Below are positions 51,001-54,000 of a stretch of 64,000 bases of DNA, piece by piece. Source of the stretch: Escherichia coli (GTDB lineage Bacteria; Pseudomonadota; Gammaproteobacteria; Enterobacterales; Enterobacteriaceae). Position 1 is the first letter of the stretch, and every line of letters starts with the position of its first letter. A program made the position numbers. The stretch lies in NCBI RefSeq assembly GCF_050920415.1, contig NZ_CP169309.1, one strand, 5' to 3'.

Positions 51001-54000
51001 AGTCAGATATTCCTGTTGATTTGCTGAGGGAATTAAATATTGTCAGCCATATTGTATTGACAGAAACTGGAAAACCAAAAACAGACGAAATAGCAAGGCA
51101 CTCTGAAACCAGCCTCACCTACGGACAACTCCGGCAATGGAGTGATCTGAGTGTACGGCGGGCGGCCAGGAGTTTAGAGGATTACTGTCGGAACCTAAAC
51201 ATTAATGTGGACACTGTCAAACCCTACCTGACCCCAGACGGGCTTACTCCCCTCGGCGAAGAGATGCGGGATAATGTAAAAGTGCAGGGGCTCACTGTTG
51301 TGGGGTAAGGCCCTGCACATCCCGTGGCCCCCTGCATGGCTAAAGCATGGAAAGCGGAAGAAAAAGCGCAATGAGGTCGTAGGACGAACGGTTCGGGGAA
51401 GGCTGAAGAGTACGTATCTGGTCCTGAAGACCGGATAAACCTTCATCGGTCCAACGTTTAAGCCACTTGTAGCTAGTGGCAGGAGAAATGCCGTAGTGAC
51501 GGACCCTGTAAATAATTCTGTGTAACTGCCCACGGTTAAAGGTGGCCGCTCAGGCGGTCACCGTATTCGATAATAAATTGTGTGATTCATAGACATCGTT
51601 TCAATTTTCTCAGCTCAAGTTCAAGCTGGTTATTCTGTTCCTGTATATGCTCCTCATTGGGCTGATAGTTTGCATGAACGGCATCAGAGTATGGCGTTTT
51701 CTTAGCAAGTTCAAAGTAGCGCGCCATCGGAGTTATCAGCCACCCACAGCTGGTCAGGATGTTCTGCCATGAACTGACGATTCACACAGTCGCCTGCGGC
51801 AACGACTTTCCTGCTGACTGTAAACAGAACGACGGTCGGCGGTGAAATAACGGTCTTTGCCCTCACCTACGCCATGGCCCAGCGCCCGGCTCATGTCGTA
51901 CATCACGTTAGTAGCCATCGCTTTCACGCGGGCATCCATTGCGGCGTCGTTCAAAACCATACCTCCCCAGCCGCAAATACCGGGTAACCTGATACTTCAA
52001 CAATAAGATTGGTGCGTGGATGATAGATTGCCAAATAATAATCCATCAAGAAATAATGACAACAAAAAACATCAAGCAACCCTAATGTTATTTGGTCATA
52101 TAAAACATTAATAAGTCTTGACCTTTCCTGACATTTTCCTTATTCGCAATAATATTCTGTTTAGACGTTGTTTATAAACATCATGCATAATGAAATCGTC
52201 ATGTTATTTGGCGATATAAAAAAGTCTTTGAAAATACTCTCTACAACAAGTGCAGTTATAAGCTTGTTGTGACTGAGCGTCCTTGTGATTTAAAGATATT
52301 ATCGTTCTTCATCAGATGTAATAACTCAGGAAATTATATTTTCAGGGTGACAGGCTAATCAAGAATGATTCTTTTTTATAAGCAATAACAGAATGACTGA
52401 ATTGTTATATTTCTTTATTCAGCTGCTTAAATATAAACTTTGGAGAATTATGAAACTCAAACATGTCGGAATGATTGTCGTATCTGTGTTGGCGATGTCT
52501 TCGGCTGCGGTTAACGCTGCCGAAGGTGATGAGTCAGTTACTACCACCGTTAATGGCGGTGTTATTCATTTTAAAGGTGAAGTGGTAAATGCCGCTTGTG
52601 CGATTGACTCAGAATCAATGAACCAAACGGTTGAACTGGGTCAGGTCCGTTCTTCTCGCCTGGCTAAAGCGGGTGACCTCAGTAGCGCTGTAGGCTTCAA
52701 TATCAAGCTGAATGATTGTGATACCAATGTTTCCAGTAATGCGGCTGTTGCATTCCTGGGGACTACTGTCACCAGTAATGACGATACGCTGGCGCTTCAG
52801 AGTTCAGCGGCAGGCTCTGCCCAGAATGTCGGTATCCAAATTTTGGACCGTACGGGGGAGGTATTAATACTGGATGGGGCAACTTTTAGCGCTAAAACTG
52901 ACTTGATTGATGGCACGAATATACTGCCATTCCAGGCTCGTTATATTGCCCTCGGGCAGTCAGTGGCCGGTACTGCAAATGCAGATGCGACCTTCAAAGT
53001 CCAATACCTATAATTCAGTATTCAGGTGGCTATGCGTCATCTGAAATTAAAACAGGGTGTGTGTGGCATGGCTACTCACACCCGAAAAAATTCATCAATG
53101 TTTATCTCATTATTACTAAGGAATGACTTATATTTTGGAACGATATGAAAAAATCATAGAGTATCTAAACGATTAATAAACAAGGCAGTTAAAATTACTG
53201 TGATTTTAAAAATCACTCTGAAGACAATTTTTTATTTCAATAGAGAACCAAGTTTTATTACCAGCGCATTAAGTCTGGAAACCCGGCCATCCGCTATAGC
53301 ATTAGCAATATTTACCATTTTCTGATGTGACGGTTTCCCCCGCTTAGCCTATCAACACATGGAGAACACATCAGATGCAGACGACTCGTACGCCCTACTC
53401 TGTTTCTTTTATGGCGACAGTATTACTTTCATTGGTCTTTCTTTGCCATAGTACCATTGCCAATGCAGCGGTAGCTCTAGGTGCAACTCGTGTAATCTTT
53501 CCAGCAAATCAGAAACAGGTTTTATTGCCTGTCACGAATAATGATCCTGCCAGTGTCTATCTTATTCAGTCATGGATAGAAAATGCGGGTGACCAAAAAG
53601 ATACCCAGTTTGTCATTACCCCACCGCTTTTTTCTATGCAAGGCAAAAAAGAGAATACGCTGCGGATTATCAACGCCACTAATCATCAGTTACCGGGCGA
53701 CCGGGAAAGCCTGTTTTGGGTAAATGTCAAAGCTATTCCTGCTATGGAAAAAGATCAGAAAAATGCAAATACATTACAGCTCGCAATTATTAGCCGCATA
53801 AAAATGTTCTATCGCCCAACGAATTTGGCAATGGCACCTGACCAAGCTCCGGAAATGCTTCGTTTCCGCCGCAGTGGTAGCAAACTGACACTTATTAATC
53901 CGACCCCCTACTTCATTACCGTAACGAATATGAAAGCAGGAAATAGCGATCTCCCAAACACCATGGTGCCTCCAAAAGGTGAGATTTCTGTGGATTTCCC

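Follow-up and report, generated by a model that had tools for sequence, protein, structure and literature searches.

Remnants of four insertion sequences form a short mosaic near the right end of a variable segment between hipA and the F9 fimbrial operon of Escherichia coli

We analysed a 64-kb stretch of the Escherichia coli chromosome, referred to here as the window, in which a 6.8-kb variable segment lies between hipA and the F9 (yde/fml) fimbrial operon. At the left boundary of this segment, homology to O157-type E. coli ends at 45310. At the right boundary it resumes at 52082 in comparison with O157-type strains and at 52067 in comparison with a UPEC genome, and in comparisons with 4950 other E. 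coli records it likewise begins at one or the other of these positions, upstream of the gene for the F9 fimbrial major subunit. An O157 genome has a 496-bp stretch with a partial helix-turn-helix (HTH) pseudogene at this site instead. The segment contains remnants of an integrative-element module, a group II intron fragment, a leucine-rich repeat (LRR) gene and an ankyrin-repeat gene, insertion sequence (IS) debris, and a hydrolase fragment. Its features are listed below.

45311-52081, no strand: variable segment ('islet') of 6.8 kb, from hipA to the F9 (yde/fml) fimbrial operon
46859-47110, minus strand: group II intron reverse-transcriptase/maturase fragment, amino acids ~358-441 of 526, with one frameshift
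51309-51361, no strand: 53-bp spacer from the stop codon of the ankyrin gene (51308) to the first IS fragment
51362-51502, minus strand: 5' fragment of a putative IS481-family transposase, HTH region, codons ~35-81, IS nucleotides ~179-319
51502-51578, minus strand: IS256-family right end, 77 bp, with the terminal inverted repeat and the last 12 codons plus stop
51579-51734, minus strand: ISEc18-like (IS481-family) right end, 156 bp, outer terminus at 51579, with the last 46 codons plus stop
51735-51822, minus strand: IS629/IS1203-like (IS3-family) internal fragment of orfB, IS nucleotides ~698-785, no IS terminus
51823-51995, minus strand: internal fragment of an alpha/beta-hydrolase gene, 57 codons, amino acids 136-192 of 352
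51996-52081, no strand: tail of the variable segment, ending where ordinary E. coli homology resumes

Three stretches in the left and middle parts of the segment (45358-46331, 46325-46869, and 48896-49073) preserve remnants of an integrative element's conserved module, as judged by comparison with the homologous DNA of strains 214-4 and KMi029. A hypothetical gene, a gene with an MbcA/ParS/Xre-type antitoxin C-domain, and an HTH repressor-like gene make up this module, and in 214-4 and KMi029 the integrative element that bears it carries integrases and defence cargo. The HTH repressor-like gene is represented in the segment by two non-identical partial copies that overlap by 69 bp at 91% identity. 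The ankyrin-repeat gene to the left of the IS debris encodes a 654-amino-acid protein for which no relatives were found in 100,044 species-representative genomes; a protein search returned only three clusters, two of them under the name E. coli and the third from a metagenome contig that carries this locus as well.

The original prediction had pointed to 46860-47043 as a second IS site. This was not borne out, since the minus strand of this region encodes a fragment of a group II intron reverse transcriptase, and the site is retroelement debris that overlaps the 3' end of the LRR ORF. The fragment matched an ORF on a Salmonella diarizonae plasmid by tblastn (E 3e-17 and 3e-21) and with 81% nucleotide identity over 211 bp, and this ORF passes the TIGR04416 group_II_RT_mat cutoff (340 bits versus 300). 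The reverse-transcriptase/maturase ORF of a group II intron is present as a fragment only, and no Rfam intron match for RNA domains such as domain V was detected over 46200-47400 at E <= 1, with noise-level miRNA matches as the only Rfam output. No match to IS-annotated DNA was detected for 46300-47100. An apparent IS982 transposase on the plus strand at 46898-47056 (NCBIfam E 0.063) was rejected as the antisense of the intron fragment.

To the right of the ankyrin gene, sub-segments were searched one by one and then aligned to reference copies from annotated genomes. Positions 51362-51822, ~460 bases, proved to be an end-to-end mosaic of four IS fragments from three families, with all transposase senses on the minus strand. 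The original prediction had described transposase pieces of at least two types on the minus strand across 51330-51960. Such pieces were confirmed, and their number rose to four IS types; the interval narrowed to 51362-51822, as 51823-51960 belongs to the hydrolase fragment. The HTH-type and IS3 OrfB-like peptides it named were both recovered in minus-strand translations covering three frames, and every piece of the mosaic matched IS sequence far beyond chance. Read 5' to 3' on the minus strand, the order is hydrolase amino acids 136-192, IS629-like nucleotides ~698-785, the last 156 nucleotides of the ISEc18-like element, the last 77 nucleotides of the IS256-like element, IS481-family nucleotides ~179-319, and the 3' flank of the ankyrin gene. 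No other copies of any mosaic piece were found in the 64-kb window. The alignments establish what each piece is, where in its parent element it lies, and which of the junctions coincide with IS termini.

In the closest carrier of this sequence, MFDS1022581, the RefSeq annotation has hipBA on one side of the stretch and the F9 fimbrial operon on the other, and it shows three minus-strand partial pseudogenes here, labelled 'helix-turn-helix domain-containing protein', 'IS481 family transposase (missing N-terminus)', which is the ISEc18-like piece, and 'alpha/beta hydrolase'. The IS256 and IS3 pieces are without RefSeq annotation in all carriers.

The leftmost piece, where IS481-family homology begins at ~51362, encodes an HTH peptide containing RHYGISPATSYKWLKRWTDEGLSGL (51364-51501, minus-strand translation), and both of its ends are internal to the parent IS. 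It shares 87.2% nucleotide identity over 141 nt with an IS481-family element on plasmid CP099182 (nucleotides 2003-2143 of the reference locus), and by tblastn it is 75% identical to IS481-family transposases (E 2e-15); identity to ISEc19/yagA is ~75% at the nucleotide level. Against the NCBIfam IS481 profile (NF033577), the piece scored 26.8 bits (E 3e-6), far below the whole-protein cutoff of 224, in keeping with its length of 47 codons, while the 384-amino-acid transposase of the CP099182 element scored 252 bits. The close nucleotide match to an element whose transposase passes this cutoff supports the IS481 family as the probable source of the piece.

Base-level mapping showed that IS481-family homology runs to 51502, where an IS256-type terminal repeat, (G)GACCCTGTAAAT, starts, placing the outer terminus of the IS256-type piece at 51501/2. 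This terminus aligns with that of ISEc39 as (G)GACCCTGTAAATAATTCTGTGTAACTGCC, and the encoded protein tail, FIIEYGDRLSGHL followed by a stop, aligns with the ISEc39 C-terminus, which ends in FIIEFGDRLSEHL and a stop. The piece matches solo remnants located close to yafV and yjhR at 97-99% identity and ISEc39 at 87%; the ISEc39 transposase passes the IS256 cutoff (425 bits versus 150). IS256-type homology stops at the identical base in three unrelated contexts. A family-type terminal repeat and the transposase C-terminus are therefore both present in 51502-51578, while a complete transposase and paired ends are missing from these 77 bp.

The adjoining piece is 89.2% identical (E 4e-56) to the end of the 1020-bp ISEc18 of strain 165 (NZ_CP020509), and at 11% divergence it represents a relative rather than ISEc18 itself. 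A perfect 25-bp terminal inverted repeat, TGTGTGATTCATAGACATCGTTTCA, occupies 51579-51603 and is identical to both ends of ISEc18; the repeat, TGTGTGATTC, starts where IS256-type homology stops, at 51578. The encoded protein tail aligns with the C-terminus of the ISEc18 transposase, and an NCBIfam profile scan of the fragment gave no match. One of the two IS481-type terminal inverted repeats is present and its partner is absent, as is an intact DDE (rve) transposase with an N-terminal HTH, so that the piece is the remnant of a family member. Our search of the literature on ISEc18 returned resistome surveys only. The IS256-type and ISEc18-like pieces were both missing from the original prediction's naming.

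The rightmost IS piece encodes an OrfB-like peptide ending in VNRQFMAEHPDQLWVAD at ~51735-51800 (minus-strand translation). Its 88 nucleotides are 88.6-89.8% identical to annotated IS3-family transposase genes, with copies in 3585 genomes (E 5e-23), and they map to the middle of orfB in a 1310-bp IS629 copy of strain EDL933, in the integrase-core ORF. The match to the NCBIfam IS3 profile (NF033516) covers positions 199-222 of 369 (E 0.018). The programmed orfA-orfB frameshift, terminal repeats, and DDE triad are all absent from 51735-51822. Because the piece diverges by ~10%, it derives from a relative of IS629 and not from IS629 itself.

To the left of the mosaic, the spacer at 51309-51361 had no match outside islet-bearing genomes. 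On the other side, the hydrolase fragment is 81-83% identical by tblastn to plasmid alpha/beta hydrolases (E 7e-24) and 82.7% identical at the nucleotide level to a plasmid gene of E. coli MS 69-1; it is no mobile-element gene, in agreement with its RefSeq label as a partial alpha/beta hydrolase. An extension of this fragment to 51766, suggested by tblastn, was rejected, as neither the nucleotide homology nor the high-identity protein match continues below 51823. The original prediction had also proposed an islet boundary here, which holds roughly, but the debris lies ~250 bp inside the right end of the segment, with the hydrolase remnant between the debris and the core genome.

A single transposase pseudogene of IS481 or IS3 type, decayed in place by frameshifts and stops, would explain why all three minus-strand frames carry transposase-like peptides broken by stops and why RefSeq gives only short partial coding sequences, and the original prediction had likewise described the pieces as broken by frame changes. 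Instead, the pieces are separate fragments that match four different elements at 87-99% nucleotide identity, and homology ends abruptly at each junction. Their order, with the middle of an IS3 orfB followed by two 3' ends and then a 5' HTH region, is impossible for one gene, and two complete terminal repeats lie inside the stretch. Junction mapping thus refutes in-place decay of one gene, a reading to which we give practically no credence.

The five junctions fall into two classes. At 51501/2, the IS256-like terminus abuts the interior of the IS481-family element, and at 51578/9, the ISEc18-like terminus abuts the interior of the IS256-like element. Since each joins a true terminus to the interior of another IS, both point to nested insertion, which upholds the earlier suggestion of past insertion activity. 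In contrast, the junctions at 51734/5 (ISEc18-like interior to IS629-like interior), 51822/3 (IS629-like interior to hydrolase interior), and 51361/2 join interior sequence to interior sequence or to non-IS DNA and are read as deletion scars. The left junction of every insertion has been deleted from the mosaic, leaving no target-site duplications to compare. The description of the pieces as 'scrambled' is not needed, because the remnant corresponds to the right-hand junctions of the nest with the left-hand parts deleted.

As an alternative to nesting, IS copies might have recombined with one another, homologously or illegitimately, and been rearranged or inverted to give the mosaic. Three of the five junctions are interior-to-interior, as such a process would produce, and the IS629 piece lacks a terminus. 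However, the two terminus-to-interior junctions are the product of insertion, and a precise IS end is not expected from recombination; furthermore, the four pieces share one orientation, and no inverted duplicate occurs in the window. We therefore consider recombination a very unlikely origin for the mosaic as a whole.

Nested insertion followed by deletion is the reading we favour, and the logic of the junctions suggests the following order of events. An IS481-family element would first have been present downstream of the ankyrin gene. An IS256-family element may then have entered it at nucleotide ~178/179 in the same orientation, and the IS256-like element would in turn have received an ISEc18-like element at a point 77 bp from its own right end, again in the same orientation. 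An IS629-like element would also have been present to the right; its remaining piece could reflect insertion into the ISEc18-like element, insertion into the hydrolase gene, or arrival by recombination. Three deletions, probably by illegitimate recombination, would then have removed most of each element to create the junctions at 51361/2, 51734/5, and 51822/3, with the last also truncating the alpha/beta-hydrolase gene. No intermediate, with an intact ISEc18 in an IS256-family element in an IS481-family element, was found at the locus.

The region 51250-52100 is whole in 17 of 5426 complete E. coli genomes at 96.8-99.8% identity, and the complete-genome carriers match the 88-bp IS3 piece of the window at 96.6-100%. 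The full locus layout was read in 3 of the 17. Besides the window, four carriers were aligned in detail (three complete genomes and one metagenome contig), and all have the same mosaic; base-by-base alignment of the three complete genomes showed only a few SNPs inside it relative to the window, and the metagenome contig, which also holds this locus, is collinear throughout the mosaic at 98% identity. A 25-mer spanning the IS256/ISEc18 junction was absent from 100,044 species-representative genomes. Together, the shared mosaic and the absence of the junction 25-mer from species representatives indicate that the mosaic arose a single time, in an ancestor of the E. coli sub-lineage that carries it. 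It predates diversification of the carrier lineage and has been vertically inherited at the locus.

Deletional decay is ongoing at the locus. Strain N96 lacks 46204 to ~51825, with a junction at an A-run/AG microhomology. We rejected N96 as an 'empty site' marking clean insertion of the islet, as its junction cuts the HTH gene; because this gene is contiguous in the window, 214-4, and KMi029, N96 is a deletion derivative. The right endpoint of its deletion lies 0-6 bp from the IS629/hydrolase junction, a coincidence that we attribute to chance together with microhomology (AAACAG). In strain 2013C-4282, 50732-51369 is missing and the junction shows CAA(T) microhomology; a second deletion in this strain affects the HTH/hypothetical gene pair and is equivalent to 6289-6913 of locus L012 in 214-4. 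The window itself lacks 6413-7000 (coordinates of that locus) of the same gene pair, and these different endpoints indicate that the window and 2013C-4282 deletions are independent. Strain E200086 has lost 13 bp from the hydrolase piece. Separately, MFDS1022581 carries a fresh IS2 insertion at 46728-46733.

Every scrap in the mosaic descends from a known IS family, and none has the features of a functional member. Because no transposase ORF longer than 68 codons remains, and the only terminal repeats left are two solitary right ends from different families, the debris cannot transpose. We conclude that 51362-51822 is very probably non-functional debris left by successive nested IS insertions followed by deletions.

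Co-option of this debris, either as a promoter or terminator for the ankyrin gene or the fimbrial operon or through its terminal repeats as a hotspot of recombination or deletion for transposases acting in trans, appears extremely unlikely. The ISEc18 repeat contains a weak sigma-70-like match (51604-51577, minus strand), but at 9 of 12 positions it is at the level of consensus noise, and the one terminator-like hairpin (51610-51629) compares with 1.2 expected. More than 600 bp, including a conserved upstream region, separate the debris from the fimbrial start codon, and an Rfam scan of 50800-52600 gave noise-level miRNA matches only. Two independent deletions do have an endpoint no more than 8 bp from an outer junction of the debris (51822-51828 in N96 and 51370 in 2013C-4282), yet these endpoints are not at IS termini, the junctions of both show A-rich microhomology of the kind typically left by replication slippage, and the left endpoint shared by N96 and another 2013C-4282 deletion is an A7 run far from any IS. 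No function is supportable for the debris, which is most plausibly a scar in a decaying islet, close to its right end.

In a broader interpretation, two host-interaction-type genes nearly confined to a rare E. coli lineage would have arrived on an integrative element, whose relic the debris marks. These would be a hypervariable IpaH/SspH-type LRR protein that has lost its NEL ubiquitin-ligase domain and the 654-amino-acid ankyrin-repeat protein, which lacks relatives outside E. coli. We looked for a NEL domain remnant downstream of the LRR ORF and found none, and we regard this interpretation as speculative and rather unlikely. If it were true, the debris junctions would date and delimit the acquisition of the LRR and ankyrin genes, and the two proteins would be uncharacterised effectors, provided that they are still expressed and are also secreted, for instance through a type III system. 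Regardless, both genes sit in a degenerating, horizontally acquired segment, which provides context for studying them.

The mosaic carries little weight in itself but is a well-resolved case of nested IS insertion followed by deletional decay, and it is usable as a lineage marker. It also calls for a correction to the RefSeq annotation, which omits the IS256 and IS3 scraps and lists 51362-51502 under a generic HTH label only.

Each piece can be set against its known relatives. The unnamed IS481-family element represented by CP099182, found on IncI-gamma/K1 plasmids of E. coli and E. marmotae, shares the 141 bp of its HTH region with the window at 87% identity, whereas the window piece is internal only, without a start codon, catalytic domain, or either end; ISEc19/yagA is a more distant relative, at 75% identity only. 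Among IS256-family elements such as ISEc39 and IS1414, the terminal 77 bp of ISEc39 are 87% identical to the window piece, but the window keeps the right end only, cut here by the ISEc18-like insertion; the solo IS256-type ends by yjhR and yafV in many E. coli are closer, at 97-99%. ISEc18 shares its last 156 bp, including the 25-bp repeat and the C-terminal tail of the transposase, at 89% identity, but only 15% of the element is kept, with neither DDE domain nor left end. IS629/IS1203 (1310 bp) shares 88 bp of orfB that immediately precede the catalytic core, where the window piece encodes the family signature '...F.A..P...WV.D', but the scrap is internal and lacks the ends, orfA, and the frameshift site.

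Nested IS remnants, or 'IS graveyards', occur at the borders of enterobacterial genomic islands, such as CP4-6 of K-12 around yagA. Such graveyards likewise consist of short IS fragments from multiple families beside horizontally acquired genes, annotated as partial pseudogenes. The configuration described here is already known as a kind, and three of the pieces had already been flagged by the RefSeq pipeline. With no difference of substance from such graveyards, the mosaic is a newly described example of one, located between hipA and the F9 fimbrial operon in a rare E. coli lineage.

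The islet between hipA and the F9 fimbrial operon retains three stretches of an integrative element:

45358-46331, conserved-module remnant of the integrative element
46325-46869, conserved-module remnant of the integrative element
48896-49073, conserved-module remnant of the integrative element

Besides a hypothetical gene and an RstR-like HTH gene, the module encodes an MbcA/ParS/Xre antitoxin C-domain. Two or more integrases accompany it in strains 214-4 and KMi029, where the element also carries defence cargo such as Hachiman HamA/helicase. Because the HTH gene is present in the window as two diverged partial copies, which are 91% identical over the 69 bp they have in common, these data suggest that two element relics lie side by side in the islet.

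Between the remnants lies a gene for a leucine-rich repeat (LRR) protein, whose 3' end is overlapped by a retroelement fragment:

47044-48651, minus strand, LRR protein gene (535 aa), N-terminal and LRR region of the IpaH/SspH2/SlrP type
46859-47110, minus strand, group II intron reverse-transcriptase/maturase fragment

The protein lacks the NEL ubiquitin-ligase domain, as its match to the NCBIfam SspH2 profile (E 1e-58) covers only profile positions 280-438, and we found no NEL remnant downstream of the ORF. Its closest full-length relative is an Escherichia fergusonii NEL ligase of 861 aa, with 41% identity. Homologues in E. coli range from 339 to 535 aa and differ in repeat number, and the protein contains the micro-repeats (KTS)x6 and (PSRP)x3. 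Since the intron fragment supplies the final ~25 codons of the LRR ORF, read in a different frame, these findings suggest a link between the group II intron remnant and loss of the NEL domain.

A second repeat-protein gene lies further along the islet:

49344-51308, plus strand, ankyrin-repeat protein gene (654 aa)

Among 5.8 billion proteins, only three homologous clusters were detected, two of them named E. coli and the third from a metagenome contig holding the same locus. There were no relatives in 100,044 species-representative genomes. Variants differing in repeat number were 602, 651, and 473 aa long. Beside the islet, the F9 operon allele in this lineage is divergent, with only 84-88% identity to most E. 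coli across the operon's 5' part and the region upstream of it (52067-54000).

One islet carrier, strain MFDS1022581, has also undergone an IS insertion at the equivalent of window 46728-46733, as it contains an IS2 copy there (L001, the locus in this strain, 3150-4478; annotated as frameshifted) with flanking homology that overlaps by 6 bp. In strain N96, a 5.6 kb deletion (5999-6006 in L003, the N96 locus) begins at an A7 run (window 46198-46204), and an independent deletion in strain 2013C-4282 shares this left endpoint. On its right side, the N96 deletion (window 51822-51828) ends 0-6 bp from the IS629/hydrolase junction, apparently by coincidence.

Plasmid CP099182 (L008), which carries the reference IS481-family element, also contains a 36-bp IS256-type scrap (1495-1530) that is 83% identical to window 51542-51577 and lies ~300 bp beyond the left end of that element. 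The relative orientation on the plasmid is opposite to that in the window, and its proximity to the IS481-family element there is probably a co-occurrence of unrelated debris.
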